Positions 1,878-27,868 of a stretch of DNA of 31,533 nucleotides are shown in pieces. The DNA lies in the NCBI GenBank assembly GCA_020631675.1, contig JAHDGT010000002.1:1-31533 (forward strand), given 5' to 3'. Made by a program: the position numbers and the translations under genes. The notes beneath the pieces are model-generated. The model did no database searches. It saw nothing but the letters and a program-made list of their open reading frames with translations, and was not told where the DNA came from. The DNA is from Bacteroidota bacterium. GTDB taxonomy: Bacteria > Bacteroidota > Bacteroidia > Chitinophagales > UBA2359. Position 1 is the first letter of the stretch, and each line of letters opens with the position of its first letter.

Positions 1878-1912
1878 TCTCTTCTTTTGAGATTGAGGTA
1901 GAGAGGTAGTTA

Positions 1913-1948
1913 AAAAAATGCCGCACCAAATATGGTGCGGCATTTTTT
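1913..1948 (+). terminator. Intrinsic terminator, possibly bidirectional
   Basis: AAAAAATGCCGCACCA-aata-TGGTGCGGCATTTTTT, a perfect inverted repeat 35 nt after the stop at 1877. Confidence 0.9.
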
Positions 1949-2033
1949 ATTGAGGCGGAATTGTACCCAATACTTCATAGACCAGCAAAAAGATTAATTA
2001 ACATAGGTCAATATTTCCCACCATCAAAAAAAG

Positions 2034-2041
2034 TATTTTTG
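2034..2041 (+). promoter_or_regulatory. Bacteroidota housekeeping-sigma -7 box upstream of DUF1800
   Basis: TATTTTTG matches TAnnTTTG, 45 nt upstream of ATG 2087 and downstream of a terminator. Confidence 0.55.
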
Positions 2042-2086
2042 ACGTAAGGGCTCATGCATTGTCCAAATTCACTCAACACAATAATT

Positions 2087-3727: not shown

Positions 3728-3775
3728 CCTTCATGGCACGTTTCCTTTTATTTCATTCTAAAAAATCAACACACC

Positions 3776-5830: not shown

Positions 5831-5866
5831 ACGATATATTAAGTACCGTAAAACTGGTAAGAGTGA

Positions 5867-5905
5867 AAGGCGATGTCGCTATATGTGATATCGCCTTATT
5901 TTTTT
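5867..5905 (+). terminator. Intrinsic terminator of the DUF1800-DUF1501 unit
   Basis: AAGGCGATGTCGC-tatat-GTGATATCGCCTT (two G-U pairs) followed by A and T7. The tetR stop codon on the other strand overlaps it. Confidence 0.8.
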
Positions 5906-6573
5906 ATAAGCCTGAACGCAAAGAAAACCATCATACACTCAACCTGATTGTAATCCCCCTCCTTTACCTGAACATCCGTCAAATGAGGTAAATGCTCCGC
6001 GAAAAAAATGTGGTTGTTGTGCATCTCGAATAAATTGCTGGCCAAAGCATGTGGGTAGGGAAACTCGCTATTGATCTCACTGATCACATCCGCTACTTTA
6101 TCGCACAACTGCTTATAATTCAAAAACAAGCCTTCCGTATTCTCTCTATCCACCGCCTTCGTATGATAGGCTTTAGCCCCTTCAGAAATAACGATTCGGT
6201 GTAAAATCTGCTCGTTCACATATCCAATAGCCGGGTTTTCTCGCTTTGCATGAACGATCGTCTTAATAATGATCTTCAAACGTTCCTCCCCTGAAGCGAT
6301 ATTGGCCGTATTCAGGTCGATTAAAAAACTGACCCACTCCCAATACCACGCTACCAAATAGATCAATAGTCGGTGTTTATTCTCAAAGTACCGATAAACA
6401 GAGGCTTCCGTAGAAGACATCGCCTTCGCTAATTTTTTAAAGGTAAAAGTCTCAAAACCCAGTTCATCGATCATTAAAATACTGTGCTTAATGATCTTCT
6501 GCCCCAATGCCGTTTCCTGTGGATCTCTAATATATAGGCGATCGTTCAAGATCATTTTGATGCCTACTGCCAT
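5896..6573 (-). CDS. TetR/AcrR-family transcriptional regulator
   Basis: N-terminal HTH: GFETFTFKKLAKAMSSTEASVYRYFENKHRLL. Confidence 0.92.
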   Translation of the reverse strand: MAVGIKMILNDRLYIRDPQETALGQKIIKHSILMIDELGFETFTFKKLAKAMSSTEASVYRYFENKHRLLIYLVAWYWEWVSFLIDLNTANIASGEERLKIIIKTIVHAKRENPAIGYVNEQILHRIVISEGAKAYHTKAVDRENTEGLFLNYKQLCDKVADVISEINSEFPYPHALASNLFEMHNNHIFFAEHLPHLTDVQVKEGDYNQVECMMVFFAFRLIKK

Positions 6574-6592
6574 AGTAAAACTAAATTTTTGT

Positions 6593-6600
6593 CAAAAATA
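6593..6600 (-). promoter_or_regulatory. -7 box of the tetR promoter
   Basis: Reads TATTTTTG (TAnnTTTG) on the minus strand, 19 nt upstream of the tetR ATG. Confidence 0.55.
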
Positions 6601-6644
6601 ATGAATAGCGCGAACAAGTTCACCAATCATGCGTTAAAGGTTCG

Positions 6645-6652
6645 TATATTTG
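6645..6652 (+). promoter_or_regulatory. -7 box of the sulP promoter
   Basis: TATATTTG (TAnnTTTG), 64 nt upstream of ATG 6717. Confidence 0.65.
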
Positions 6653-6675
6653 CATAATAGCAATGCTATCATGCA
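6651..6675. promoter_or_regulatory. Palindromic operator, probable TetR site
   Basis: TGCAT-A-ATAGCA-A-TGCTAT-C-ATGCA: a 25-bp dyad with one mismatched pair, covering the expected sulP transcription start. Confidence 0.7.
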
Positions 6676-6716
6676 TTCTCCTTCTACTACAAAGTAATCC
6701 ACAAACACTTTCAATC

Positions 6717-8333
6717 ATGACAGAAAAGCAAAACGTTAATCTGTTCGGTCACTTAAAAAGTGACATCCCGGCTTCCATAGTCGTGTTCCTCGTAGCGGTT
6801 CCCCTATGTTTAGGTATCGCACTGGCATCAGGAGCACCTTTATTTTCTGGTATCATCGCAGGTATCGTAGGTGGTATCATCGTGGGTGCCTTGAGTGGCT
6901 CCCAATTAGGGGTAAGTGGGCCAGCCGCTGGTCTTGCTGTGATCGTTTTAACCGCCATCACTGAATTAGGAGCCTTCGATGTTTTCTTATTAGCCGTGGT
7001 TATCGGTGGTGTCATTCAATTGCTGCTGGGCTTTGCCAAAGCAGGTATCATCGGTTATTATTTCCCCTCCTCCGTGATAAAAGGAATGTTATCGGGTATC
7101 GGTATAATCATCATTTTAAAGCAGATACCTCATGCCTTTGGCTATGATAAAGACTATGAGGGCAGTCTCGCATTCAACCAACCTGATGGTCACAACACCC
7201 TGTCTGAACTCTATTATATGTTCGAGGCGATCAGCCCTGGAGCTACCATAATCGCAATGATCTCTATCGCTATTTTGATTCTATGGGAACAGTCGTTCAT
7301 GAAAAAAATCAAAATCTTCAAGATCATACAAGGTCCTCTAGTAGCAGTGACCGCGGGTATCGTACTGAACTTAGTATTCCAAAACATGCCGAATTTGGCT
7401 TTGACCGCATCACAAGTCGTAAACATTCCTGTTGCAGGTAGCTTCGATGGTTTCTTGAACCTGTTCACCTTGCCAGATTTCAGTCAGATCGGTAATCCAC
7501 AGGTATGGATCGTAGGTGCCACTATAGCAATTGTAGCAAGTTTAGAAACACTATTATGTTTGGACGCGACCGATAAATTAGATCCTCAAAAAAGAGTAAC
7601 GCCTGCTAATCAGGAGTTGAAAGCACAAGGTGTGGGTAACATCATCTCAGGTTTGATCGGTGGTTTGCCCATCACTCAGGTAATTGTACGTAGTTCCACG
7701 AACATCCAATCAGGTGGTCAGACCAAAATTTCGGCCATCTTGCACGGCTTTATCTTATTGGCTTGCGCTACCTTGATTCCTTTCGTTCTCAACATGATTC
7801 CATTAGCAAGTTTGGCAGCTATCCTATTCTTAGTGGGTTACAAATTGGCAAAACCAGCCTTATTCAAGCAAATGTACAAGTTGGGGCAAGGTCACTTCGT
7901 GCCTTTCATGGTCACTATTTTAGGTATCGTATTCACGGATCTGTTGATGGGTATCGGAATGGGTATGGCAGTTGCCATCTTCTATGTCCTCTATAACAGC
8001 TACAAAATGCCTTTCTTGGTACAATCTAAAGACGAGTTAAAAGACGGTCTGATTCACTTAGCATTAGCGGAAGAGGTAACCTTCATCAATAAAGCAAGCA
8101 TCCAGCGTACATTAACTCAGATCCCTGATGGTTCTAAAGTCATCATCGACGGTTCTAAATCTGTTTATATTGACCAAGATGTGATTGAGCTGATCGATGA
8201 ATTCGAAACCAACGCCAGGTACCGTGATATCGATTTGCAGATCATCCCAAGAACGCATACCAAGTTAGATGATCAGGTTAAGCTGGTGGAGAAAGCCATC
8301 AATGACCGTAAACCTCAAGCCGTCTTGGTATAA
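6717..8333 (+). CDS. SulP/SLC26-family anion (sulfate/bicarbonate) permease with short STAS-like C-terminus
   Basis: VAVPLCLGIALASG, GSQLGVSGPAAGL, NQELKAQGVGN and PITQVIVRSS motifs, with many TM helices. ATG 6717 is preferred over 6663 because it lies downstream of the promoter/operator. Confidence 0.93.
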   Translation: MTEKQNVNLFGHLKSDIPASIVVFLVAVPLCLGIALASGAPLFSGIIAGIVGGIIVGALSGSQLGVSGPAAGLAVIVLTAITELGAFDVFLLAVVIGGVIQLLLGFAKAGIIGYYFPSSVIKGMLSGIGIIIILKQIPHAFGYDKDYEGSLAFNQPDGHNTLSELYYMFEAISPGATIIAMISIAILILWEQSFMKKIKIFKIIQGPLVAVTAGIVLNLVFQNMPNLALTASQVVNIPVAGSFDGFLNLFTLPDFSQIGNPQVWIVGATIAIVASLETLLCLDATDKLDPQKRVTPANQELKAQGVGNIISGLIGGLPITQVIVRSSTNIQSGGQTKISAILHGFILLACATLIPFVLNMIPLASLAAILFLVGYKLAKPALFKQMYKLGQGHFVPFMVTILGIVFTDLLMGIGMGMAVAIFYVLYNSYKMPFLVQSKDELKDGLIHLALAEEVTFINKASIQRTLTQIPDGSKVIIDGSKSVYIDQDVIELIDEFETNARYRDIDLQIIPRTHTKLDDQVKLVEKAINDRKPQAVLV

Positions 8334-8396
8334 ATTCTTCGTGATTTCTTATTGTTTAACTATACAAGTGTAGACCACTTTGTATTTTAGGAGGAT

Positions 8397-8430
8397 GGGA
8401 CTGTCTTATGTATTAGACAGTCCCTTTTTT
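8397..8430 (+). terminator. Intrinsic terminator after sulP
   Basis: GGGACTGTCT-tatgtatt-AGACAGTCCC followed by T6. Confidence 0.88.
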
Positions 8431-8455
8431 ATTTTTATACTACTTTTAATCATGC

Positions 8456-8614
8456 TGCGCCCCTCCGCAAGCTCCGGGTACGGGCTATCCGCTAAATCAA
8501 GCGCCTTGCCTGGCGGTTCGTTGCTGCCCGTTGCGGTGGCTACCTCTGGGCCGCCCCCGCAACGGGCGCACTCACTCGCCATTCAAGCCACTTAATACCG
8601 CTCCTATCCCTCGC
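8456..8614 (+). repeat. Dispersed nested-hairpin intergenic repeat (REP/MITE-like), copy A
   Basis: Conserved 5' CGGGCTATCCG (8481-8491) and 3' TACCGCTCCTATCCCTCGC (8596-8614). Internal stem GCCCGTTGCGG (8526-8536) / CCGCAACGGGC (8557-8567). Confidence 0.8.
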
Positions 8615-8658
8615 AGAAGTAATCCGTAATTAGTACCTTGCCGTAACAAATCGATGCT

Positions 8659-9633
8659 TTGAACACGCAAGAACAAATCAATACCCTCTTAGCTAAACTA
8701 GCTGACTTACGCCAAGAAATTCACAAAGTGATCTTCGGACAAGAAGAAGTCGTTTCCCAATTGCTCATCAGTCTACTGGCAGGAGGGCATGCTTTAATAG
8801 AAGGCGTACCCGGTTTAGCAAAAACTCTATTAGTAAGTACATTGGCAGAGGCGGTCGACTTATCCTTCAAACGCATACAGTTTACGCCTGACCTTATGCC
8901 GAGTGATATTCTGGGTACAGAAGTCATTCAGCAACACGCCAGCGGACAAACCGATTTTCGTTTTGTTAAAGGACCCATCTTCGCCCATATCGTTCTAGCC
9001 GATGAGGTGAATCGTACTCCGCCTAAAACCCAGGCAGCACTCCTAGAATGCATGCAAGAAAGACATGTCACCTATGCCGGACAGACCTACCCCCTGCCCC
9101 GGCCTTTTTTCATTCTAGCTACCCAAAACCCCATAGAACAAGCAGGTACCTACCCACTACCCGAAGCCCAATTAGACCGCTTCCTGTTGTACATTAAAAT
9201 GCCTTATCCCAGCGAAGAGGACGAACTTAAAGTTTTGAACGCCACCACAGGTGTAAAAAAAGTAAAAGTCAATGCTGTCATTCAAGCAGAAAACATACTC
9301 GAATTACAAGACTACACCCGCCAAGTGAGCATTAGTCCGGATCTGGTCAAGTGGGTCAACCATATGGTAAGATCCACCCGTCCGCATGATAGCCCCTACC
9401 TCTTCATTAAAGAACAAGTAACATGGGGGGCAGGACCCAGAGCAGGACAAGCCCTAATACTTTGCGCCAAAGCCAATGCCTTACTCAATGGTCGTTTCTC
9501 CGTACTAAAAACAGACATTGAAACAATGACAAAACCCGTCCTTCGTCACCGCATTAGATTGAATTACAGTGCCAGTTTAGTACCTAATGCCTTAGAAAAA
9601 CTCATAGAATCGTTAATAGATGCTAGCAAATAA
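8659..9633 (+). CDS. MoxR-family AAA+ ATPase
   Basis: Walker A GVPGLAKT, RIQFTPDLMPSDI, Walker B LADEVNR, ATQNPIEQ.GTYPLPEAQLDRF. TTG start. Confidence 0.93.
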   Translation: MNTQEQINTLLAKLADLRQEIHKVIFGQEEVVSQLLISLLAGGHALIEGVPGLAKTLLVSTLAEAVDLSFKRIQFTPDLMPSDILGTEVIQQHASGQTDFRFVKGPIFAHIVLADEVNRTPPKTQAALLECMQERHVTYAGQTYPLPRPFFILATQNPIEQAGTYPLPEAQLDRFLLYIKMPYPSEEDELKVLNATTGVKKVKVNAVIQAENILELQDYTRQVSISPDLVKWVNHMVRSTRPHDSPYLFIKEQVTWGAGPRAGQALILCAKANALLNGRFSVLKTDIETMTKPVLRHRIRLNYSASLVPNALEKLIESLIDASK

Positions 9634-9699
9634 GGGCAAAACATGCTACTATACTTTCAATAGCTATCTTTACGATCAAATAAACCACTTCACCACCTT

Positions 9700-11547
9700 A
9701 TGGCATTTATTGTATCGGCAAGGAAATACCGCCCTACTCGTTTTGACGAAGTAGTAGGCCAACGTACGGTAAGCACTACCTTGAAAAATGCGATCAAGAA
9801 TGGTAAAGTCGCCCAGAGCTTTTTATTCTGTGGACCAAGAGGGGTCGGTAAAACCACTTGTGCTCGTATTCTCGCCAAGGCACTGAATTGCAGCAGCATG
9901 CAAGCTGCATTAGAAAGCGGCAATGCTGTTACAGACGATCAGGTAGAACCTTGCGGCACTTGCAACTCCTGTAAAACTTTCCAAGAACAAGCCTCCCTTA
10001 ATATCTTCGAGCTGGATGCGGCTTCTAATAATTCTGTAGAAGACATTCGCAAACTCATAGAGCAAGTTCGGTTCGCACCGCAAAGCGGGCGCTATAAGAT
10101 ATACATCATTGATGAGGTACACATGCTCTCTCAAGCAGCCTTCAATGCCTTCCTAAAAACCTTAGAAGAACCTCCGCACTACGCCATCTTCATTTTGGCT
10201 ACCACTGAGAAGCACAAGATCATACCTACCATTCTCTCCCGCTGCCAGATATTCGATTTCGGAAGAGTAGCTGTAGCTGATATTGTGGAGCATTTAAAAT
10301 ACATCAGTGAGGATCAAGGCATAACAGCCGAAGAAGACGGACTGCATGTGATCGCTCAAAAAGCAGATGGTGGCTTACGCGATTCATTGTCCATCTTTGA
10401 CCGTATTGCCAGCTTTAGTGGTGGTACTATCAGCTATCAGCATGTTTTAGACAGCCTGCATGTACTGGATTACGACCATTATTTTAAACTGACAGACGCA
10501 TTGCTTGCTCAAGATAGTAGTAGTGTCTTGTTGGCCCTGGATCAAATTCTGAAAGATGGTTTTGAAGGCGATCATTTTTTAATGGGGCTTTGCGGGCATT
10601 TCCGCGACCTATTGGTCTGTAAAAACCCGCGCACCTTGGCTTTATTAGAAGTGAGTCCAAAGCTAAGAGCACGCTATGGTGAGCAGTGTAAAATCACTCC
10701 TACCAGCTTTCTGCTAAGTGCCTTGCAATTGGCTAATGAATGCATGCAAGGCTACAGAGAAAGCCAGAATAAGCGTTTACAAATCGAATTGGTGTTGCTG
10801 AAAATGTGCCACATCACCAATGTAGTGGATCTGGCAAAAGCCGGTGTGCCGACCATGATCGCCGCCCCTACGACCGCATCCGCACCTTCCGTTGAAAAAA
10901 AAAGTGAAGTCGTAAGCAGTACCCCTCCTAAAGCAACTACTCCACCTTCAGTAGAACCATCCACTGATCCTGCGGTACAGCCCGGCAACGATTTGGGCAA
11001 GCAGGTAGATGTCCCTGAAGCACCAGCAAAAGCTAAGAGCCTACTACGTAAAAAGCCGAAGTCGAAAGATGGGCTTGCGATCACTTCTCTAGGTAAGCTG
11101 CATGAAAACCAACGCAAAGAGCAGGAAGAAGCGGAAAAAAATAAATCTTCCCAGCCGAAAGAAGTAATAGAACTCACTGATGAGCTACTAACTTCTAAAT
11201 GGGCAGCATTTACTGCTCCTTTTGACAAAGGCAGTACAGGCGGTGCCATACTCAAGCGAGTAGTGCCTAAGTTAGATCAAGCAAAGCATCAGATCCGTAT
11301 TGAGTTAGCGAGTACATTTGAGATCGAACGGATTAAAATGGAGGCGCACGACTTTCTACAGCAGCTAAAGACGGAGCTGAACAATCCGAACTACCGTTTG
11401 GAGATGCTTATTGACCCAAGCATAAAAGCCGCTAGAGAAAAAGAACGCAAAGCCTACACCCCCAAAGAAAAATACGAGGAAATGTACAAGGCTAATCCGA
11501 AGATCAAAGATTTAGTGGTCAAATTCGGGCTGGAGTTGGATCATTGA
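9700..11547 (+). CDS. dnaX: DNA polymerase III subunits gamma/tau
   Basis: ARKYRP, GPRGVGKTT, Zn-module PCGTCNSC, ELDAASN, DEVHML, KTLEEPP and SRC motifs; Pro/Ala linker; Bacteroidota-type C-terminal domain. Confidence 0.97.
   Translation: MAFIVSARKYRPTRFDEVVGQRTVSTTLKNAIKNGKVAQSFLFCGPRGVGKTTCARILAKALNCSSMQAALESGNAVTDDQVEPCGTCNSCKTFQEQASLNIFELDAASNNSVEDIRKLIEQVRFAPQSGRYKIYIIDEVHMLSQAAFNAFLKTLEEPPHYAIFILATTEKHKIIPTILSRCQIFDFGRVAVADIVEHLKYISEDQGITAEEDGLHVIAQKADGGLRDSLSIFDRIASFSGGTISYQHVLDSLHVLDYDHYFKLTDALLAQDSSSVLLALDQILKDGFEGDHFLMGLCGHFRDLLVCKNPRTLALLEVSPKLRARYGEQCKITPTSFLLSALQLANECMQGYRESQNKRLQIELVLLKMCHITNVVDLAKAGVPTMIAAPTTASAPSVEKKSEVVSSTPPKATTPPSVEPSTDPAVQPGNDLGKQVDVPEAPAKAKSLLRKKPKSKDGLAITSLGKLHENQRKEQEEAEKNKSSQPKEVIELTDELLTSKWAAFTAPFDKGSTGGAILKRVVPKLDQAKHQIRIELASTFEIERIKMEAHDFLQQLKTELNNPNYRLEMLIDPSIKAAREKERKAYTPKEKYEEMYKANPKIKDLVVKFGLELDH
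10895..10915 (+). other. Putative recoding (slippage/frameshift) site in dnaX
   Basis: A9 run (10895-10903) followed by TGA in the -1 frame (10905-10907) and TAA in the +1 frame (10913-10915). Confidence 0.65.
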
Positions 11548-11553
11548 TCGTAT

Positions 11554-11631
11554 CAATTTGAAAATTTGATAATTAGCTAATTTGAAAATAATTGAATTTT
11601 CAAATTCTGAAATTGACTAATTTTCAAATTG
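11554..11631. repeat. AT-rich composite palindrome of four 11-bp units
   Basis: AATTTGAAAAT at 11555 and 11579; ATTTTCAAATT at 11596 and 11620. Confidence 0.8.
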
Positions 11632-11636
11632 TTTCC

Positions 11637-11788
11637 GCGTGAGGGATAGTAGTGGTTATGAAGCCGCTGAATGCGCCCTGTTTGGCGGCGTAGCGGGGCT
11701 GATCAGAGGAAGACACCGCTACGCCTGCCAAACAGCAGCAGGCAGCGGCTGAATTTGAACGGATAGCCCGACCCGCAGGGGCACGCCC
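11637..11788 (-). repeat. Dispersed nested-hairpin intergenic repeat, copy B
   Basis: The minus strand reads GGGCGTGCCCCTGCGGGTCGGGCTATCCG...AACCACTACTATCCCTCACGC. Internal stem 11678-11696 / 11716-11735. Confidence 0.8.
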
Positions 11789-11832
11789 AAATAAAAAAAC
11801 AATTAACACAAACATAAACTCCTATTCTTACT

Positions 11833-17754: not shown

Positions 17755-18183
17755 TTATTTCAAAAAATAAAAAAGAAGAACAGACCGAAATGTCCATAGC
17801 ACCGTTCTGACCCAGTTCGTGGATACTAGTTTTTCATAGGCCGATTGCTCAAAGCCATTAGTCAGTGCGTTATGTGCGGGTATTTGCAGTAGAAAAGTGG
17901 ATAGCCATATCAATACTAATGCACCTACTGCGAGCCACCAAAGAAAGGAGGCTGTTTGAAGAATTGCGGGCATTTCATAAGAAAGATAGAAAGCCGTGGC
18001 TAACTCCAACAACATCACCGGCATGACGATGTAGGTGATCAATCGGGTGTGCGCGGCGTGGTATTGACCGAACTGCGCTGCCCCTATGGTATCAAAAAGC
18101 GGATAGTGTACTATTTGCACCATCCAGATCAGTCCGGTCATGAAGGCGGTCACTAAAAAATGTAGGAGTAAAATCGTTTTCAT
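17755..18183 (-). CDS. Uncharacterised four-helix membrane protein with several His residues
   Basis: About 4 hydrophobic segments; LIWMVQIVHYPLF, YHAAH, QIPAHN and NWVRT motifs. Confidence 0.75.
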   Translation of the reverse strand: MKTILLLHFLVTAFMTGLIWMVQIVHYPLFDTIGAAQFGQYHAAHTRLITYIVMPVMLLELATAFYLSYEMPAILQTASFLWWLAVGALVLIWLSTFLLQIPAHNALTNGFEQSAYEKLVSTNWVRTVLWTFRSVLLFYFLK

Positions 18184-18200
18184 TAGGATGATGAACTTGC

Positions 18201-18236
18201 CGTAAGCTCCGCAAAGGATAGGAGCGGTAATGAGGT
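18201..18236 (-). repeat. 3'-end fragment of the dispersed hairpin repeat (copy D)
   Basis: The minus strand reads ACCTCATTACCGCTCCTATCCTTTGCGGAGCTTACG. TACCGCTCCTATCC is identical to copy A; ACCTCAT matches copy C. Confidence 0.65.
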
Positions 18237-18375
18237 GGTATTGCAGCTATGCGGCATAAAAAACAATAGTGTCAAAACATTGGAACTTAACAAATGTTCT
18301 ATGTATGCATTGCTTTTAAAAGCTTATCTTTATTGTTCTATTAAAATTGATACATCTTATTCCAATTCAGATATT

Positions 18376-20424
18376 ATGATTTTACGTTCACTATTTACAT
18401 TTTGCTGTTTGCTGTTGCTTCAAGCACAGCTGAATGCGGCTACTTTTGATGACATTTACGAAGTGCTACAAGAGAAGTGCACGGACGCTTTATTGGCGGA
18501 TGATGCGACAGGCAATTTAGACCTTAACGGCACGGCTCAAGAGGTTTATGATGCATTGGTAGGCGTTACTCCTGATAATGAATCTGCCCAAGAGAAGAAA
18601 TGGCAGTGGGTGAAGCCCGGTGCGCCCTATAAGAGTTTGTTGTTGTTCAAATTAGACAATGGCATCATTGAGGATGAAGATGGTGTGTTAGACGCTACGA
18701 TGGGTGAAGCGATCACAACTTTGACCAATATAGAGTTGGAAACGATTCGTCAGTGGATCTTTTTCGGTTGCCCTGGTCCGGGTCAGACGGACGCTGCTTT
18801 ATTGAATGCGGTGAACTGGGCGGAAGAATATTATTTAGATGGTGGTTTAGCGGGTATACCTCGTCCGCCGGCACCAGATCCAGGTGAGGGTTACCAAATT
18901 CATTTGGGTCCTATTTTCATGGACGCGAACGAAGAGCGCGAATATGTTTTACGCCAAAAAGCGGATTTTGATGGTGAGACCGAGGTCAATAGAATGGATG
19001 TGATCATGAACCAGCAGAGTCACCACTTCATTTTAAATGAGGTGACGGGCAGTGGTGGCAATCAGCCTGAGGATGGTTTGATCGGTGTGAATTTCTTTAA
19101 TGTAACAGATGTGTTGTTCGAGAAGTCTTTGGGGGTATGGCAGTATAGCGATGATATTCGTTTACCTGCGGGTACGGCTTATACTTGGGATGAGAATACG
19201 ATGTTGCAATTGGATTACCATATTAAGAACTACAGCTTAACAGGTGTTTTACCTGCTGATGTTTACTTGAACATTTATACACAACCGAATGGCACTGCGG
19301 CTAAAGAGATGAAGTCGGAGTTATTGGTTTACCTTGATTTAGACTGGGAAGTACCTGCGGATGGGGTTCCACATACGTACACGGATTTCATCAACAACTC
19401 TAATCAGTGGAATATTTGGATGTTGAGTTCGCATACGCATAAGCTCGGTACGGATTTCGATATTTTCAGACAGACTTCTGGCGGCGGTATCGGTGAGCAG
19501 ATCTACGAGGGTTTTTACAATTATGAAGAGGGCTATGATGTTGGTTATTACGATTGGGAGCACCCTGCGAACCGATATTTTGAGCCGTATATGATATTAG
19601 AGCCGGGTGATGGTTTGGTGCAACAAGCCACTTATTTGAATTCGGGAGATGAGCCTGTAGGATTTGGTTTGACTACGGATGATGAGATGTTCATATCCAT
19701 CATGCAATACTATTCAGGCGAGGAGATTCCTTATGTTGAAGTGGGTAATTTACAAGACAACTACTGTATTCAGACCGGAAGTGTGGAGTTAGCACTTACG
19801 CCAGAAGGTGGTGTTTTAGAAGGTCCGGGTATTAGTGGCAATACATTCAACCCAGCGGAAGCAGGTTTAGGGGATCATGTGGTTACTTATACTTACGAAG
19901 ATGTAGTGGGTTATTACTATGTGGATGTAGTGGAAACGCCTGAGGTGCCTGTGATCAATAATGAAGGTGGTTTTTTGAGTGTTTCTGATGACTACAATTA
20001 TTACCAGTGGTACTTAGATGGCACTGCGCTTTATGGGGCGAACAACTATTACGTTTCTGCACCTACGAGTGGTTTGTACGAGGTTGTTGTAGCTAGAGAT
20101 GCGGGCTGTGATGTTACTTCTGAATGGACTTATGTTGTTTTGGAAGGTGTTGAAGATGTGACAGATAATACCAGTGGTTTCCACTTGGCGCCTAACCCAT
20201 TCACTGCTGAAACACAGATCACTTATGCTTTGAACAATTCTTCTACAGTAAGCTTGAGCGTTGTTGACCTTACTGGTAGAACTATTGCGACCTTGGCTAA
20301 TCAAGAGGTTCAGAATGGTATGATGAACTACCAAATTGGCGAGGATTTAGCTGCTGGCATCTATATGGTTCACTTGACTGTTGATGGTGAAACGCAGGTG
20401 CGTAAATTGATCAAACAGCAGTAA
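18376..20424 (+). CDS. T9SS-secreted protein: degenerate cytochrome-c-like domain + copper type II (PHM/DBH-like) monooxygenase domains + T9SS type A CTD
   Basis: Signal peptide MILRSLFTFCCLLLLQAQLNA (ATG 18376). SHHF, DYH, SHTH and DEMF motifs. CTD LAPNPF...DLTGR...AGIYMV...RKLIKQQ. Confidence 0.82.
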   Translation: MILRSLFTFCCLLLLQAQLNAATFDDIYEVLQEKCTDALLADDATGNLDLNGTAQEVYDALVGVTPDNESAQEKKWQWVKPGAPYKSLLLFKLDNGIIEDEDGVLDATMGEAITTLTNIELETIRQWIFFGCPGPGQTDAALLNAVNWAEEYYLDGGLAGIPRPPAPDPGEGYQIHLGPIFMDANEEREYVLRQKADFDGETEVNRMDVIMNQQSHHFILNEVTGSGGNQPEDGLIGVNFFNVTDVLFEKSLGVWQYSDDIRLPAGTAYTWDENTMLQLDYHIKNYSLTGVLPADVYLNIYTQPNGTAAKEMKSELLVYLDLDWEVPADGVPHTYTDFINNSNQWNIWMLSSHTHKLGTDFDIFRQTSGGGIGEQIYEGFYNYEEGYDVGYYDWEHPANRYFEPYMILEPGDGLVQQATYLNSGDEPVGFGLTTDDEMFISIMQYYSGEEIPYVEVGNLQDNYCIQTGSVELALTPEGGVLEGPGISGNTFNPAEAGLGDHVVTYTYEDVVGYYYVDVVETPEVPVINNEGGFLSVSDDYNYYQWYLDGTALYGANNYYVSAPTSGLYEVVVARDAGCDVTSEWTYVVLEGVEDVTDNTSGFHLAPNPFTAETQITYALNNSSTVSLSVVDLTGRTIATLANQEVQNGMMNYQIGEDLAAGIYMVHLTVDGETQVRKLIKQQ

Positions 20425-20453
20425 TTAGAAATTTAGCAAGTTTTTTGATGTAT

Positions 20454-20487
20454 AAAAGGTACGTTGAGCTTATCAACGTACCTTTTT
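20454..20487 (+). terminator. Intrinsic terminator, possibly bidirectional
   Basis: AAAAGGTACGTTGA-gctta-TCAACGTACCTTTTT. Confidence 0.88.
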
Positions 20488-20510
20488 GTGTGTTCATACG
20501 TATCAATATT

Positions 20511-20870
20511 ATGAAAAAGAAAGTTTTTGTCAATTTAGACTACTTAGAAGAGCTGGCAGGTAGTGACGCACCTGAAAAAATACAGGAATGGTTATTAATG
20601 GGCGCACAGTTACTGCCCCAACGTTGGGAAGACATGGCTCTTTCTTTTGAGCAGGATGATGTGCAGGCACTTCAAATGGCGACGCATAAGTATCGTTCTA
20701 CGGCTCAGTTCTTGGGCTTGAGTATCGCACCCGTTTTAAAGCGTATAGAGAGTGAATTGAGGGCGGGAACGCCAATGGAAAAACTCAAGGCTACACTTAC
20801 CGCAGCTGAATGGATGACTAAAGAAAGTATAGCCCGTTTACAACAGTTGACACAGGCTCAAGCAGCATGA
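20511..20870 (+). CDS. Stand-alone Hpt (histidine phosphotransfer) protein
   Basis: VNLDYLEELAG N-terminus and ATHKYRSTAQFLG, a variant of AHKLKGSAxxxG. The 20445 start overlaps a terminator, so ATG 20511 is preferred. Confidence 0.75.
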   Translation: MKKKVFVNLDYLEELAGSDAPEKIQEWLLMGAQLLPQRWEDMALSFEQDDVQALQMATHKYRSTAQFLGLSIAPVLKRIESELRAGTPMEKLKATLTAAEWMTKESIARLQQLTQAQAA

Positions 20871-20925
20871 ACCAATGAACCAAACCCAACAAATACAAAC
20901 CTTATCATCTAATACCCTCCCCAAT

Positions 20926-21294
20926 ATGAATCGACCGAAAATATTGCTGGTCGAAGATGAACCTTTGATTTTAGATGCATTGGCATTTAGAATGAAAAAA
21001 GCAGGTTATGATACCCTGTCCGCTCCAGATGGAAAGCAAGCCATAGAACTGGTTCAAGAGCAAAGCTTCGACCTGATCATCACTGACCTCATGCTTCCTT
21101 TCGCAAATGGTTTTGAACTGATCTCTTATGTTCGGGAGACTTTAAAAAGCGATGTGCCGATCATTGTGCTATCTGTAGCAGGTGTAGAAAACATGATCGT
21201 TGAAGCCTTAGACCTAGGAGCTAATGATTTTGTGAATAAGCCATTTAGTCCACATGAATTGAATAGTAGGGTAAAGCGGTTATTACGTCGGTGA
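20926..21294 (+). CDS. Single-domain response regulator (receiver)
   Basis: KILLVEDE, DLIITDLMLP, VLSV and DFVNKPFS motifs; no output domain. Alternative start at 20875. Confidence 0.92.
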   Translation: MNRPKILLVEDEPLILDALAFRMKKAGYDTLSAPDGKQAIELVQEQSFDLIITDLMLPFANGFELISYVRETLKSDVPIIVLSVAGVENMIVEALDLGANDFVNKPFSPHELNSRVKRLLRR

Positions 21295-21308: not shown

Positions 21309-22646
21309 TTAGAAAGTCATTCTCGCTCCTAAAGACGCATTGACCCGCCATACTTTCACCTCTGTGCTGAAAGTCACATCACTTCTTCTCAAGCCCGCAC
21401 TACCGAATACGGCATAGCGTGCTCCTATTTTTTTATTCACACTGCTATTGATTCTCCAAGAATTGATCGTCTCCGCATCTTCTTGTACTAAGATAACGGA
21501 CGAACTTACCTCTTCTGCTTGTCTGGGCGCGATTCCATAGCCCACAGTAATATCCCACCAGTCTTTACCTGATTTAGAAAATTTACGCAGTAAGAATTGC
21601 GCGGAGCCAGAAACACCGGTTTGCTTCGGGCTGATATAGCCTCGTGCTGATAGTAAAAGGTTTTTGTGGTATTTGGAATAGGAACCGGTATAGAAGCTTT
21701 TTACTTTATTCGTTGCTGTGCTATCAATAGGGTCTTTCTTATTATAGATCCAATGTCCACCTAGAGATACTTCTTGACCATTACCGATCGACCTAAAGAC
21801 TTCTACAGCAGCATGATGATCCACAAAAACTTTATCAGGTGAGTACGAATAACTCAAATAAGCGTACAGCCCCTTCCCCAAACTCGGGTAAGCTTCACAT
21901 AAAAGTTGCCAACCTATGGTATCAAATCTTTCTGCTAGAGAATATTGTAGACTCAAACTTCCATATTTCGTTTTTCTTCCATAGCGTACTCTAAAAGATT
22001 GTTCTAAGCGTTCAAGAGTATCTTCACCACCAATAACCATCCCATAAGATCCCGCTAAGCTATTTTTCCAAGAAGCGACTTTGATATTTTTAAGCAGTCG
22101 AGCAGCCTTTTCATGTTCCTCTTCAGCAAGGATTTCTTTAAGCAGGGGTATAGCGAGTTTGGGGTTTTCTAATTTGTTATGGGTAGCGGCTAATTTGTAG
22201 CGCCAATCCGAAATCTCGGGATAGTACATTACTGCGGTATCCGCAACACCTAGTGCAACTGTTGTGTTCCCTGACCAACTTTCTACATCAAATAAGGCAG
22301 ATAAAGCATCTTTGTGTTTTGGTTTTTGGCTCAGTACTTTCCTAAGTCCTGTCCTAGACCCTTCATATTGCTTTTCCCACGCCAGCACTCTTGATTTGAA
22401 GATTCGGATATCGTGATAATTAGGCGAACGCTCCAGTGCCACTTCACACATCTGTAAAGCAGCGCCTCTATGCCCTGCGAAAGCAGTATCTCTTGCCGCC
22501 TTGAAGAGCGCATCAATTCCTAAGTCCCGCCAAGCATCATCTGATGGTTGCTGTGCCAGTAAGGCATAGCTCCCCTCTCCTACTGTCATTAGTATAAAGA
22601 GTGACAGTAAGCATAGCTTGATATAGGTCTTTGTAGAATTTACCAT
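21309..22646 (-). CDS. YaiO-family outer-membrane beta-barrel with N-terminal TPR module
   Basis: Signal peptide, TPR-like helices, EAYPSLGKGLYAYLSYSYS, alternating beta-strand pattern and a C-terminal aromatic residue (LGARMTF). Confidence 0.82.
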   Translation of the reverse strand: MVNSTKTYIKLCLLSLFILMTVGEGSYALLAQQPSDDAWRDLGIDALFKAARDTAFAGHRGAALQMCEVALERSPNYHDIRIFKSRVLAWEKQYEGSRTGLRKVLSQKPKHKDALSALFDVESWSGNTTVALGVADTAVMYYPEISDWRYKLAATHNKLENPKLAIPLLKEILAEEEHEKAARLLKNIKVASWKNSLAGSYGMVIGGEDTLERLEQSFRVRYGRKTKYGSLSLQYSLAERFDTIGWQLLCEAYPSLGKGLYAYLSYSYSPDKVFVDHHAAVEVFRSIGNGQEVSLGGHWIYNKKDPIDSTATNKVKSFYTGSYSKYHKNLLLSARGYISPKQTGVSGSAQFLLRKFSKSGKDWWDITVGYGIAPRQAEEVSSSVILVQEDAETINSWRINSSVNKKIGARYAVFGSAGLRRSDVTFSTEVKVWRVNASLGARMTF

Positions 22647-22678
22647 GATAAAATGGGGAATTAAGGAGAAAATTCGGC

Positions 22679-25180
22679 TTACATTACTTTGGTCTTAGCC
22701 AACAAATTATTGTACTGAGGATGTTCTGGATTGACTGCTTGTAGTTTGTCCAAGAATATACATGCAGGCTCTTTTTCGTTTTTAATGATGTACATTCGAG
22801 CAACTCTGTACAAGAGTTCTTCGCTATTAGGCGATTTTTCCAGCCCTTTCAAGCCTAATGTAATCGCCTTGTCCACATTACCTGTCCAAAACTCCACATC
22901 CATTAAAGCGGCGAAAGCATCAGGGTACTCAGGAGAACGATTGATGATGTAGTTGAATTTTTCTCTCGCCTCGTCATATTCTCCATTCCATGCGTAAGTT
23001 CTTCCATATAGGGTACGCACATCGTGATAATCAGGGCTGACCTTTAGCAATCCTTCACAAATGACTCTTGCATCCTCGAATTTGCGGGCGAAAGCATATT
23101 CTCTGGCCAATAAAAAACGATCTTCTGTGTTCAGCACCTTTTTAATGTCGGCGCGCGTCCCTCCTGTCGTTAGTACATGCTCTCTAACAGGCTTCACCAC
23201 ATCAGGAATCACTAAGCGGTTATTGTAGCAAGCATATTGATTGTCGATTTTGAATTGCTTGAATTTCTCAGCGATCAAGTGCTTCACTTCTTCATTATCT
23301 ACCCTTTTCATACCCAACTGAGGCGTCATTTCATAAAGTTCCTCATCCGCATAGTAGTACTTATCGTGGATGTAATCCAGCATTTGGTTCTTATTGCGCA
23401 TTAGAGGTAGTGAGTGCGTGTTTCTGAATGTTTCCTCTGTATCTATCCCATCTCCTAACCAGTAAGCCTGTTCTGGGAAGCGCATGTCGTAGTTCTTTTC
23501 AAAGAAGCCCAACAAGCTAGGCAGCACATCCATATGTGTAGATACCGAGTTGAAAGTTTTAGCCTCCTTTATCATAGGTGAATGAATGATAAAGGGCACT
23601 CTGAAACGGTCGAGCTTCGTACTTAGGGGAATCACATCCATTCTATGATCGCCAGTGATGATGAAAATGGTGTTCTTGTACTCAGGACGTTTTTTATACG
23701 CCTCAATAAAATCACGTATCGCATCATCCGCATATTTCACCGAAGCGAATTGCTTCATGTATTTCTCATTGTATGCTTTTTTAGATGCGGGAATATCCAG
23801 CGCTTGATTCCAAGCTTTCGCTTTTTCAATATAGGCAGGACGTTCAGCAAATTGGAAAGGGTCATGCATACTCAAGGTCAAGTAGATATCTAATTTAGGA
23901 TTGCCTTTATGCTCACTATCCATCAATTCGAATGAACGGCTATAAAGCGACTTATCATCATAGCCCCATGAAAAGCCCTTATCATTACCATCCATTATTT
24001 TATAGTCTCCTCCAAAATCACGTACATCTTGTATGAAGCTCACATCATTGATACCAAAGAAATATCGTTTCTTATCAAAATTAGACGGACCACCATAATA
24101 GAAGTGAGACTCATAGCCGTACTGGCGTAATAGTGTCATCAAACTTAAATGGTCAGGCATTTTTTCACCCATTTCCAAAAAGCCGTGATCGGCATATGGT
24201 AGCGAGCCAAAGAGGGAGGGATACACTCCATAGGTTCTGCCAGTACAGCTTAAAAAGTTATTCCAGCTCAAACTCTCGCTCGCCAATTCGTCCAAAAATG
24301 GGGTAAAACTTCCCAAATAGGGACTTTCTCCACTGAAGGCACGACTCAAACTTTCTACGATTACAAAAACAACATTAGGCGGTTCACTATCATTCAATTC
24401 AAAATATTCACCCAATACATCTTCATATTTCACCTCTTTCATGAAAGGGTAATCCGTTCTACCGTCTATACTTGCTGCAGCTTTTATCTCACTCTTATTA
24501 TCATAATGAGTGAGTACATCTTTTACGAAAAACCCTACTTTATTCGTACTAATATGGTGTTGGGTTTCTTCGGTATAATCTTTTGGATCAGGCAGGCTCT
24601 TCCAACCTAATAAGCAACTGGCGAAACATAGAACAACAAAAGCGTAACTAGGTGCGGGAGTTGGCATCCATCGGTCTGCTATACGAGGGCTGAACCAAGC
24701 AAAAATGAGTGCGACCAAGCCACCGACCAAAGCCAGCCAGTTCGTATCACCACCACTCGCATTTGCTTTAAAAGTGGTAGACATCTCACTTATATCATAA
24801 CCTAACATATTAGCCCCCAGTGGAGTAAGCGTTATAATAAAATACTGTACAGCAGCAAAAAGAATGATCGTAATCACCATAGTAATGATTCTATAGAACC
24901 ACTTTCCACCCTTTTCGGTAAAATGACTGATCAGTACAAAAGGGAAAAACAACAATGCTGAAATTTGCAAGCAGAATAGTATATCATAGCCAAAACCCCA
25001 TAAAAAGTTCGACCAGCTATTCTCTGGTAGAATATGTTTAGCATTGATGCCTTGAAACTCTATCAACCTTAAAGTGAAAAAGATCAATAAAAGCACTACA
25101 CTTAAAGAGAAAAACCGTCTAATGATATGACTGGTCTTTTTAGATGCTGCCAACACTTTGATGTTATCAAACCATTTCAT
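22679..25180 (-). CDS. LTA-synthase/sulfatase-like membrane phosphotransferase with C-terminal TPR module
   Basis: About 5 N-terminal TM helices; PNVVFVIVES, SCTGRT (candidate catalytic Thr), SMHDPF and ITGDH motifs; TPR repeats at the C-terminus. Confidence 0.88.
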   Translation of the reverse strand: MKWFDNIKVLAASKKTSHIIRRFFSLSVVLLLIFFTLRLIEFQGINAKHILPENSWSNFLWGFGYDILFCLQISALLFFPFVLISHFTEKGGKWFYRIITMVITIILFAAVQYFIITLTPLGANMLGYDISEMSTTFKANASGGDTNWLALVGGLVALIFAWFSPRIADRWMPTPAPSYAFVVLCFASCLLGWKSLPDPKDYTEETQHHISTNKVGFFVKDVLTHYDNKSEIKAAASIDGRTDYPFMKEVKYEDVLGEYFELNDSEPPNVVFVIVESLSRAFSGESPYLGSFTPFLDELASESLSWNNFLSCTGRTYGVYPSLFGSLPYADHGFLEMGEKMPDHLSLMTLLRQYGYESHFYYGGPSNFDKKRYFFGINDVSFIQDVRDFGGDYKIMDGNDKGFSWGYDDKSLYSRSFELMDSEHKGNPKLDIYLTLSMHDPFQFAERPAYIEKAKAWNQALDIPASKKAYNEKYMKQFASVKYADDAIRDFIEAYKKRPEYKNTIFIITGDHRMDVIPLSTKLDRFRVPFIIHSPMIKEAKTFNSVSTHMDVLPSLLGFFEKNYDMRFPEQAYWLGDGIDTEETFRNTHSLPLMRNKNQMLDYIHDKYYYADEELYEMTPQLGMKRVDNEEVKHLIAEKFKQFKIDNQYACYNNRLVIPDVVKPVREHVLTTGGTRADIKKVLNTEDRFLLAREYAFARKFEDARVICEGLLKVSPDYHDVRTLYGRTYAWNGEYDEAREKFNYIINRSPEYPDAFAALMDVEFWTGNVDKAITLGLKGLEKSPNSEELLYRVARMYIIKNEKEPACIFLDKLQAVNPEHPQYNNLLAKTKVM

Positions 25181-25323
25181 AAGCCTAAATATTTATTTCT
25201 TGCTGTTATACTTTTTAAGCCGCCTAAAATTTCGTAATTGAGATAATTAAACGAATAGGCTTACTTATTGAATGGAATATTCATGCCATTCATTTGGTAT
25301 CGTCCTGTTCAAATTCTCCATTA

Positions 25324-26424
25324 ATGGATATCCATATACTATATATCGTCAGCATCTGCTTCATCATAGGTACAGCTTTAATGCTGGCGTTTATGATAAT
25401 GGGACGATTAATCAGAGATTGGAACAAACAAAAAAATGCCCAATTCGAAGAACAGTGGAGTCAACTACTTATTGAATACGCATTAGAAGACGAAGAAGAT
25501 TCAAAGCCGCTAGCAGAAATTCGGTCCTTTTTAAAAGAGAGTGGCAAAAGTTGGATACATGCGAAACGCTCAAAGCGAGTTTTACAGGGCATTCTTTTGA
25601 ACTTACATGAAAATTTAAAAGGAACAGCTGCTGAAAAACTTCGTGAACTGTATTTTAAAATTCAGTTAAACTTATGGACAAGCAAGCAATTGCGATCGAG
25701 GTCTACGGTAGGTAAGATCAAGGCTATAAGAGCACTTACCAAGATGGGTGCAAAAGAACAATTCGCTCTAATTGAACGTATAGACCATAGAGGAAATCAA
25801 TCACTCCAAACCGAGTTACTCATTGCTAAGCTTGTTTTATCCGAACAGCCTTTTGGTTTTTTATCAGATGCTAAAACAAGCATTTCCAAATGGACGCAAA
25901 TGCGACTACATGCCGAGCTGGTGAAACTTGACGCTTTAGCATTACCCCTTTTCAGTCAATGGCTGGATAATGATGAAAGTAGTGTTCTTCGTTTTTGCTT
26001 AGACATGTGTGCTGCTTTTGATCAGCAGTTCAGAGATGATAATGCTATTCGTAAGGCAAAACAGTTGATCAGACATGAAAATGTCGGTGTTCAAATAGCA
26101 GCTATTGGTGTACTCAGTAAATGGGGTGAAGAATCTACTGCTGATTTATTACTGGCACGATATAAGGAAGTAAATGAAGAACGCTTACAAATCGCTTTAT
26201 TGCGAGGTTTGGGCAATGCGATACACGAAGGTGTACTTGAAGTCTGTATCAGTTTACTTTTAAACATTCCACAAGAAGCGCATTTAGTACGTGTAGCTGC
26301 TGTGAAATCCTTAGCTCAACTATATCCTCAAGGTATTGAACGCCTTAGCGAACTAAATGAAGAACATAAAGAGGATGATCCTATGCTTGAACAGATCATC
26401 ACTCAAGTCTTAAACGCAACATAA
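25324..26424 (+). CDS. Membrane-anchored HEAT-repeat protein
   Basis: One N-terminal TM helix followed by helical repeats (VGVQIAAIGVLSKWG, LVRVAAVKSLAQL). ATG 25324 is preferred over TTG 25294. Confidence 0.8.
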   Translation: MDIHILYIVSICFIIGTALMLAFMIMGRLIRDWNKQKNAQFEEQWSQLLIEYALEDEEDSKPLAEIRSFLKESGKSWIHAKRSKRVLQGILLNLHENLKGTAAEKLRELYFKIQLNLWTSKQLRSRSTVGKIKAIRALTKMGAKEQFALIERIDHRGNQSLQTELLIAKLVLSEQPFGFLSDAKTSISKWTQMRLHAELVKLDALALPLFSQWLDNDESSVLRFCLDMCAAFDQQFRDDNAIRKAKQLIRHENVGVQIAAIGVLSKWGEESTADLLLARYKEVNEERLQIALLRGLGNAIHEGVLEVCISLLLNIPQEAHLVRVAAVKSLAQLYPQGIERLSELNEEHKEDDPMLEQIITQVLNAT

Positions 26425-26437
26425 ATAATCACATAAT

Positions 26438-27868
26438 TTGGATATAGCCAGTCATATCTCCTATTTCTTTCAGTATACGATCTTCTTTTACTGTATGTCT
26501 ATCATCGCATCTTATGTGATCATGGCGATTGTATCTGGAGTGAGCGTATACCGTTATTATAAGCGGAGTAGAAATGAAGATTACAGACAGCTTTTATCGT
26601 CCCCCTACGCCCCTTCTATCTCAATCATTGCCCCTGCTTACAACGAATCGGCAACTATTGTAGATAATATCCGCTCGCTGATGAATTTACACTATGGTAA
26701 ACTCACTGTGATCGTTGTGAATGACGGCAGTAAAGACGATACGAGAGATAGGGCTATTGAAGCTTATGACTTAGAGAAAGTACCTTTTGCCTATAATATG
26801 GGCGTGAAGACTAAAGAAGTCAGAGGTGTATACAAAAGTAAAAACCCTGCCTTTAGCAAACTGATCTTCGTTGATAAGCACAATGGGGGTAAGGCGGACG
26901 CTATTAATGTAGGCATTAACGTTTCACAGACCGACTTATTTGCTTGTATTGATGTGGATTGCATCATTGAGTCTGATGCGTTTCTCAAGATGGCGCATCC
27001 TTATATGGTCAATGATAAAGAGCGTATCATAGCTGTGGGCGGAATAGTATGGCTGACCAATGATGCAGAGATCAAAGAAGGACAGCTCATTCGCTTACGT
27101 TCTCCAGAGACTTTTCCGCCAAGAATGCAGGTCGTTGAATATTTCAGAGCCTTCCTACTCGGACGAACCGCATGGAGTACCTTCAATGGCTTATTACTCA
27201 TTTCAGGCGCATTCGGGCTGTTTGATAGAGAGATCGCCGTGGCCGCGGGTGGTTACAACCACAATACCGTAGGAGAAGACATGGAGCTGGTCATGCGCAT
27301 GCATGCCTATATGAGAGAGCGTAAGCTTCCTTATAGAGTAGAATACATACCTGATCCACTCTGTTGGACAGAAGCACCAGGAAATTTCAATATTCTCGGT
27401 AGGCAAAGAAACAGATGGACTAGAGGCACCATTGAATGTTTAATGATCCACAAAAAAATGTTCTTTAACCCACGTTATGGCGCATTGGGTTTATTGAGTT
27501 ACCCCTACTGGTTTTTCGCGGAATGGTTGGCTCCTTTTGTTGAGGCTGGTGGTATCTTATTCGTCATATTAGCTGCGATCTTCGGCTGGTTGAACATACC
27601 TTTTTTCATGTGGCTCACCATCTGCTTATTCGCTTTTTCGTTTTGCTTATCAACTTTTTCTATATGGCTTCAAATGGTCACCTATGACTGTTATAAAGGT
27701 AAAAGAGATTTACTCAGTTTAACCTTAACCGCATTCATAGAACCATTCTGGTATCATCCCAGAGTAGTTTATTGGGCACTCAAAGGCAATTACGATTTCT
27801 TCAGCAAGAAAAATGTAGGCTGGGGAGAAATGACCCGACAAGGTTTCGCCAATAAAAAGAAAAAATAA
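26438..27868 (+). CDS. Processive GT2 glycosyltransferase (PgaC/IcaA/cellulose-synthase-like)
   Basis: APAYNE, VNDGSKD, NGGKADA, DVD, VGEDME and QRNRW (QxxRW) motifs; N- and C-terminal TM helices; TTG start. Confidence 0.93.
   Translation: MDIASHISYFFQYTIFFYCMSIIASYVIMAIVSGVSVYRYYKRSRNEDYRQLLSSPYAPSISIIAPAYNESATIVDNIRSLMNLHYGKLTVIVVNDGSKDDTRDRAIEAYDLEKVPFAYNMGVKTKEVRGVYKSKNPAFSKLIFVDKHNGGKADAINVGINVSQTDLFACIDVDCIIESDAFLKMAHPYMVNDKERIIAVGGIVWLTNDAEIKEGQLIRLRSPETFPPRMQVVEYFRAFLLGRTAWSTFNGLLLISGAFGLFDREIAVAAGGYNHNTVGEDMELVMRMHAYMRERKLPYRVEYIPDPLCWTEAPGNFNILGRQRNRWTRGTIECLMIHKKMFFNPRYGALGLLSYPYWFFAEWLAPFVEAGGILFVILAAIFGWLNIPFFMWLTICLFAFSFCLSTFSIWLQMVTYDCYKGKRDLLSLTLTAFIEPFWYHPRVVYWALKGNYDFFSKKNVGWGEMTRQGFANKKKK

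Follow-up and report, generated by a model that had tools for sequence, protein, structure and literature searches.

A Bacteroidota gene for a probable exported two-copper oxygenase of the PHM/DBH fold that has lost the haem site typical of its family

PHM, DBH and TBH are textbook animal enzymes, and the animal relatives in this group amidate peptide hormones and make noradrenaline. PHM is the catalytic core of PAM (PDB entries 1PHM, 1OPM, 1SDW and 6ALA) and consists of two beta-sandwiches that carry the copper ligand sets HH...H and HxH...M. DBH, TBH and MOXD1/2 (4ZEL; P09172, Q9XTQ6 and Q6UVY6) share the same core fold and place a DOMON domain in front of it; these proteins are eukaryotic, are reduced by ascorbate and have phenylethylamines as substrates. 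The PHM family has been listed as widespread in eukaryotes and contrasted with the bacterial PNGase F (PMC8812541). A third group consists of bacterial PHM-like proteins fused to a haem-c domain (for example AFDB cluster A0A2E8HME7), on which no study was found in the literature. The gene described here belongs to this last group and is located at 18376-20424 on the plus strand of a 31,533-nucleotide window, which is the whole stretch of DNA that was analysed (contig JAHDGT010000002.1, positions 1 to 31,533, of the Bacteroidota bacterium assembly GCA_020631675.1). Its product of 682 amino acids is very probably a two-copper oxygenase with the PHM/DBH fold that leaves the cell. The kind of enzyme is known and bacterial relatives have been annotated automatically; what is particular to this gene is the loss of the haem site with both copper sites kept, together with the coexistence of haem-bearing paralogues in the same genome.

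The core of the protein (residues 150-460) was modelled with AlphaFold2 from an alignment of 113 sequences, and the model has a mean predicted local distance difference test score (pLDDT) of 93.3 and a predicted template modelling score (pTM) of 0.89. When this model is searched against the PDB with Foldseek, human DBH (4ZEL) and 30 entries for rat PHM fill the first 31 rows (E 1e-12 to 9e-9, about 300 columns), followed by a PNGase at E 2.8e-5 and a TM-score (TM) of 0.36. VIA-align places the core on PHM and DBH with Z 17.6-22.5 over 245-270 residues at 3.0-4.4 A, covering both domains; the PHM entries reach Z 20-22.5 over 259-269 residues (6ALA_C, Z 22.5 over 259 residues at 3.0 A; 1PHM, Z 20.5) and DBH chain 4ZEL_A reaches Z 21.2, while the next folds, PNGase F-like and other double jelly rolls, stand at Z 8.3. 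Matches to the core among AFDB-SwissProt models are MOXD1/2, TBH, DBH and PAM; the lowest E is 6e-14 and the highest TM 0.72 (0.70-0.72 for MOXD1/2). The fold also occurs in many bacterial AFDB clusters, whose automatic names include 'Copper type II ascorbate-dependent monooxygenase C-terminal domain-containing protein', 'Cytochrome c domain-containing protein' and 'Peroxiredoxin'. The original prediction, which was made from the sequence alone, had proposed a PHM/DBH-type copper monooxygenase and had named absence of the two-beta-sandwich PHM fold from a structural model as grounds for abandoning the proposal. That fold is present in the AlphaFold model, and both sandwiches are covered in every search. 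The first sandwich spans residues ~165-310 (18868-19305) and holds H216, H217 and H282, as placed by the model, the fold searches and residue invariance. The second spans residues ~311-460 (19306-19755) and holds H353, H355 and M438, as placed by a PF03712 match to residues 347-471, the PHM profile alignment and the fold searches.

Residue numbers used here are counted from the probable start codon, ATG 18376, and are 47 lower than those counted from GTG 18235. The latter is the start given in the open reading frame listing, and a third candidate, ATG 18301, is given by the database gene call. ATG 18376 is the likely true start because a signal peptide begins there and because the N-termini and signal peptides of homologues align to that methionine. 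Direct translation of the window places the CuH-type codons for His216-His217 at 19021-19026 and for His282 at 19219-19221, the CuM-type codons for His353-Thr-His355 at 19432-19440 (within SSHTH at 19426-19440) and the codons for Glu437-Met438 at 19684-19689 (Met codon 19687). All of these positions agree with the original prediction, as do its residue numbers 263/264, 329, 400/402 and 485, which were counted from GTG 18235, and its spacings of 65, 71 and 83; counted from ATG 18376, the same ligands are H216/H217, H282, H353/H355 and M438.

The six putative copper ligands and E437 are invariant in sets of 28, 53 and 113 aligned homologues, and since all of them hold despite a mean column identity of 31-48%, the pattern goes beyond chance. 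H216, H217 and H282 are the only invariant histidines in the first beta-sandwich. For the CuM-type site, a profile alignment of the core (in which the chain index plus 44 gives the PHM residue number) sets S-H-T-H on V-H242-T-H244 of PHM and (D)E-M on D-E313-M314, which puts H353/H355 on H242/H244 and M438 on M314, so that the second domain has the His-x-His and Met of such a site. For the CuH-type site, the structural alignments are collinear, with residues 9-307 of the model aligned to 47-330 of rat PAM and the PHM ranges arranged likewise, and they bring H67/H68 and H133 in the numbering of the model to within 1-3 residues of PHM H107/H108 and H172. The first domain of the model thus has the His-His pair and third His expected of a CuH site. 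The ligand roles proposed earlier therefore correspond to PHM residue for residue at CuM and, at CuH, through three invariant histidines at the near-equivalent positions of the model. Titles of the retrieved PDB entries reflect the same roles ('H107A ... no CuH bound', 'H172A (CuH absent, CuM present)' and 'M314I'). The two proteins have HTH and (D)EM motifs in common and their ligand sets are at nearly equal spacing, although identity is only 15-16% and about 13 residues are inserted here between HTH and Met. The protein also differs from PHM in being bacterial, in carrying signals for secretion through a type IX secretion system (T9SS) and in having an extra cytochrome-like N-terminal domain, Ig/PKD-like modules and a sorting domain.

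The substrate pocket departs from that of PHM. In PHM, R240, N316 and Y318 hold the C-terminal carboxylate and the backbone of the peptide, as seen in PHM-substrate structures such as 1OPM. The profile alignment places S351, I440 and I442 at these positions, which are variable across the family, so the anchors of PHM proper are absent. S351 is two residues before the first His of HTH, as had been read from the sequence originally. A glycine-extended peptide is an unlikely substrate because the carboxylate and backbone anchors are all replaced, and the earlier suggestion that the enzyme acts on something other than peptidyl-glycine is supported by these sequence comparisons. The examples given with that suggestion (an amine, a phenolic compound or a polymer) are guesses.

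Like DBH, TBH and MOXD, the protein has an additional N-terminal domain, and in both cases such a domain is thought to serve redox or binding roles; here, however, it is helical and cytochrome-c-like rather than DOMON (residues 22-150, 18439-18825, from the alignments and the model). The gene is a member of the haem-c-fused family, with 35-52% identity over the N-terminal domain and core and with the same architecture and T9SS tail. In nearly all relatives a C-X(2-4)-C-H motif follows about 15 residues past the signal peptide, with a conserved (E)G-x-x-M-P further on. When aligned with C-X(2-5)-C-H relatives, the haem motif of this protein reads C-T-D-A-L and the axial Met-Pro is absent, so that its haem site is degenerate and the domain lacks both signatures of a c-type cytochrome. 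The original prediction mentioned neither the cytochrome-c-fused family nor the loss of haem in this member, a point with consequences for its reduction. Some homologues match PSCyt1 and Cytochrome_CBB3, and some carry the Joint Genome Institute (JGI) label 'mono/diheme cytochrome c family protein'. The model of the N-terminal domain has a pLDDT of 89.7; VIA ranks FoxE (Z 5.7) and PccH (Z 4.4), both c-type cytochromes, highest among its matches, though these are weak, and a Foldseek search of the domain against the PDB returned nothing significant, the best row being the haem domain of hydrazine synthase at E 0.49. Cys35 (18478-18480) is the surviving first cysteine of the haem motif, and Cys131 (18766-18768) lies in a G-C-P at the end of the domain where the family has G-A-P. 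Judged from the sequence, a Cys35-Cys131 disulfide filling the empty haem pocket is possible; the nearest relative, P0003, has no equivalent of Cys131.

The family to which the gene belongs is large. A word-indexed search found more than 400 relatives, which, where the organism is named, come mostly from Chitinophagales and Sphingobacteriales metagenome-assembled genomes, and the nearest of them, P0003, is 51% identical. An exhaustive search of representatives at 50% identity gave 550 clusters at E <= 1e-3, of which 198 reach E <= 1e-30. Among the 301 genomes sampled in the phylum, the source genome included, 17 have a match at E <= 1e-10. The family profile finds five copies in the source genome and four in one genome of the same family, and a PF03712 scan of the source genome marks six places, including a distant paralogue on contig C551 and a fragment on C463. 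Further members in this genome number at least five and are located on contigs C421, C289, C264, C550, C551 and C463; those on C421, C289, C264 and C551, which were read at full length, keep C-X(2-4)-CH and a T9SS tail. The C551 protein is clearly of a different subfamily (CAGCH, VHH, HMH and DEM), and at the CuM site the C264 protein reads HAH and not HTH.

Loss of the haem motif is rare in this family. C-X(2-4)-CH is present in 234 of 251 family proteins (a count that includes two entries for the gene itself), and ~98% of full-length members keep a haem motif. The full-length proteins with no haem motif of any kind are this protein (P0001), P0003, P0122 and the pair P0175/P0236; among the others without C-X(2-4)-CH, P0158 has CX5CH and the remainder are N-terminal fragments. 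In a tree obtained by a quick maximum-likelihood search, this protein and P0003 are sisters (SH-aLRT 98) within a clade of 22 rows (99), all of which have the haem motif except this protein, P0003 and P0122. P0003 keeps all six ligands and E437. The best tree separates P0122 and thus does not trace the haem loss in P0001, P0003 and P0122 to one event, but a single clade is not rejected by the approximately unbiased (AU) test (p 0.34). Since P0175/P0236 lie far from the 22-row clade and the joining of P0122 to the pair is not rejected, the sequences indicate two or three losses, and at least two, with the copper ligands intact throughout.

Export is indicated at both ends of the protein. A Sec signal peptide of about 21 residues (18376-18438), ending in ...QLNA, was read from the sequence at the position of the hydrophobic leaders of homologues. 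At the other end, a T9SS type A C-terminal sorting domain (20191-20421, residues 606-679) matches PF18962 (Por_Secre_tail) at E 1.4e-8 with 35.3 bits against a cut-off of 27, and TIGR04183 at E 8.6e-12 with 44.9 bits against a cut-off of 23. The source genome, which is 98% complete in 633 contigs, encodes the corresponding machinery, with SprA (E 2.6e-135) and PorP/SprF, the latter matched nine times and eight of those times above the family cut-off. The protein therefore has the features of T9SS type A cargo, and the proposed route by Sec and T9SS is supported by the signal peptide, the sorting domain and the genomic T9SS genes. Between the core and the sorting domain is a spacer of ~135 residues (19768-20175), probably two Ig/PKD-like modules according to the alignment and Atlas features. 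The spacer is limited in the alignment to the long-form clade, being found in homologues of ~690 residues and not in those of ~550, and its Atlas feature matches to PKD_6/Ig_7 clusters (0.82-0.88) serve as a lead only.

Several results weigh against reading the protein as a two-copper oxygenase. The CuH equivalence and the Cu-Cu geometry depend on collinear alignment ranges of the model and not on measured distances. The PF03712 match to the protein has E 5.9e-4 and 19.8 bits, below the 23-bit cut-off; in six frames the gene scores 21.9 bits, or 23.8 with neighbouring in-frame matches. In favour of the family link, eleven of 28 homologues reach PF03712 at E <= 0.01, and the paralogue on C421 passes the cut-off with 33.6 bits. 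For PF01082, nothing was found at E <= 10 anywhere in the source genome. The profile hidden Markov model check that had been proposed for this protein thus gave a marginal PF03712 match and failed for PF01082. Single-sequence phmmer searches of the PDB with the protein and with the C551 paralogue returned nothing relevant, and with full-length family profiles T9SS tail matches dominate and PHM appears at E ~0.6. A profile of the core ranks PHM chains 1-10 and DBH 12 at E 0.07-1.2, which is not significant taken alone, and a profile of the first domain did not find PHM in the PDB. At the level of sequence the link to PHM is accordingly weak, and the assignment draws mainly on predicted structure. 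In addition, this protein sits on a rather long terminal branch (0.8, where the median is 0.59), and the missing haem site could mark a copy that is losing function. Because PF03712 is borderline and PF01082 is without a match, the protein is classed with the PHM/DBH structural superfamily, where it represents a bacterial family of its own and not a canonical Pfam member.

With these points set beside the fold, the ligands and the export signals, an exported two-copper oxygenase is still the reading held with high confidence, and it would work as follows. The protein would be exported by Sec, fold in the periplasm and then be carried by its type A C-terminal domain through the T9SS to the cell surface or the medium. 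An electron-transfer copper of the CuH type would be bound by H216, H217 and H282 in one sandwich, and an O2-activating copper of the CuM type by H353, H355 and M438 in the other, next to the bound substrate. In such a non-coupled two-copper oxygenase, electrons would enter at the His3 site, O2 would be activated at the His2Met site, and, if PHM and DBH are a guide, a C-H bond of the substrate would be hydroxylated at CuM. For nearly all relatives, the fused c-type cytochrome presumably feeds CuH, with haem attached in the periplasm before T9SS export. In this copy the haem-attachment motif and the axial Met are gone and that internal route is closed, so reduction from outside would be required, by a small molecule, as ascorbate serves PHM and DBH, or by a separate redox protein. 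Neither the pocket, which differs from that of PHM, nor the gene neighbourhoods of seven homologues, which have nothing in common, allow the substrate to be deduced.

One variant of this mechanism is that a haem-bearing paralogue, or some other cytochrome secreted by the cell, delivers electrons to the same enzyme in trans, with the degenerate N-terminal domain acting as a docking element or scaffold. The full-length paralogues that keep both haem motif and T9SS tail, among the five or more further members in the genome, could act as donors, and the N-terminal domain has been retained and is confidently folded in the model even though its haem site is lost. Canonical PHM and DBH, however, need only ascorbate, and no family paralogue adjoins the gene in the window. 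The gene moreover looks like a monocistronic transcription unit of its own, because a terminator-like hairpin follows the stop codon and the neighbouring genes are functionally unrelated; the probable intrinsic terminator consists of a 14-bp hairpin and a T-rich tail at 20454-20486 on the plus strand, 30 nt past the stop. Reduction by such a partner is considered rather unlikely.

The protein might otherwise be a copper-dependent oxidase or redox protein and not a hydroxylase. It might, for example, turn O2 into H2O2 or water at the surface or serve in copper handling, and would then have no organic substrate. Uncoupled reduction of O2 is a known side reaction of the PHM/DBH class of enzymes, and no substrate-related neighbour is conserved when the seven homologue neighbourhoods are compared with this window. 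An operon-based guess at the substrate was rejected for the same reason, as the neighbourhoods have no conserved partner; all that stands out in them is a tandem paralogue now and then, a single FadL-type porin and a single flavin reductase-like gene. No thioredoxin-fold or PAL-like partner adjoins the gene itself. In the complete genome of a relative (GCA_016700115.1, locus positions 5671-11820), the tandem long-form members P0019 and P0010 are followed by a FadL/Toluene_X-type outer-membrane channel, a single case that possibly hints at a hydrophobic substrate. Against a role without hydroxylation, the protein shows precisely the conserved pattern of the hydroxylases in its full set of His3 and His2Met ligands and in the adjoining Glu, and the 5-7 diverged copies per genome fit diversified extracellular substrates, suggesting diversified specificity and not one generic redox role; an oxidase or redox function is improbable on this evidence. 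Least probable is a non-catalytic remnant that makes no use of copper, a double-jelly-roll binding or structural protein of the PNGase F or carbohydrate-binding kind, for which the lost haem motif and the next structural neighbours (PNGase F-like and GH172/DUF2961 double jelly rolls, Z ~8) can be cited, but which is at odds with the intact ligands and E437 here and in the haem-less sister P0003, the open reading frame and the intact export signals.

The remainder of the window shows the setting of this probable two-copper oxygenase gene. Its neighbours are an M16 peptidase, a MoxR/VWA pair, a small membrane protein, an Hpt-like protein with a response regulator, and a polysaccharide module. 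The small membrane protein is a divergently oriented product of 142 residues with four helices and no Pfam match (17755-18183, minus strand), encoded 190 nt upstream of the gene. Directly downstream, past the terminator-like hairpin, the Hpt-like protein (20445-20870, likely start ATG 20511) has an H-K-Y-R-S-T-A motif and no Pfam match and is followed by a single-domain response regulator (20875-21294); no functional link of these two genes to the copper enzyme was seen in the window. The stretch 21309-27868 looks like a module for exopolysaccharide synthesis and export, with two TPR proteins, one also a YaiO-type beta-barrel and the other of sulfatase fold, grouped with a HEAT-repeat protein and a family 2 glycosyltransferase. 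At the opposite end, 81-5830 holds a DUF1501 / DUF1800 / DUF1501 trio. The GC skew over the gene (18001-20000) is +0.22, the maximum of the window, and probably reflects a coding strand rich in Gly, Asp and Glu codons. The only ecological hint is the origin of the DNA, an algae metagenome and a Chitinophagales-like lineage that has been sampled little; the DnaX of this lineage is ~51% identical to the nearest named relatives.

A wider proposal, put forward tentatively and with the odds against it, is that Bacteroidota have, in their cytochrome-fused PHM-like proteins, a new class of copper monooxygenases that work outside the cell and supply their own electrons. These would act on environmental substrates such as algal polymers or exudates, taking an LPMO-like role by means of the PHM fold, and the haem-less offshoot would show that external reductants suffice for the copper core by itself. 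LPMOs are likewise secreted copper oxygenases whose electrons come from a haem domain or from small reductants, and the likeness is one of working logic only. LPMOs with cytochrome partners, such as the CDH cytochrome domain, have an unrelated fold and a single histidine-brace copper, and no homology was found or is claimed. If the proposal is true, the haem-less offshoot would be the simplest member of the class to express and assay.

Beside the textbook animal enzymes there thus stands a large bacterial family (the 550 clusters noted above) that is predicted to have the same two-copper core and to be secreted by the T9SS, usually with its own haem, and for which no biochemical description was found in the literature. 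Within it, this gene is a natural experiment in which both copper sites were kept and the haem was dropped. The haem-less copy offers a simple construct, free of any need for cytochrome c maturation, for tests of copper binding, reductant and substrate, and it allows the contribution of the fused cytochrome to be asked. If active, these proteins would be a new type of extracellular oxidative enzyme for Bacteroidota, and their substrates may bear on the turnover of algal or plant matter.

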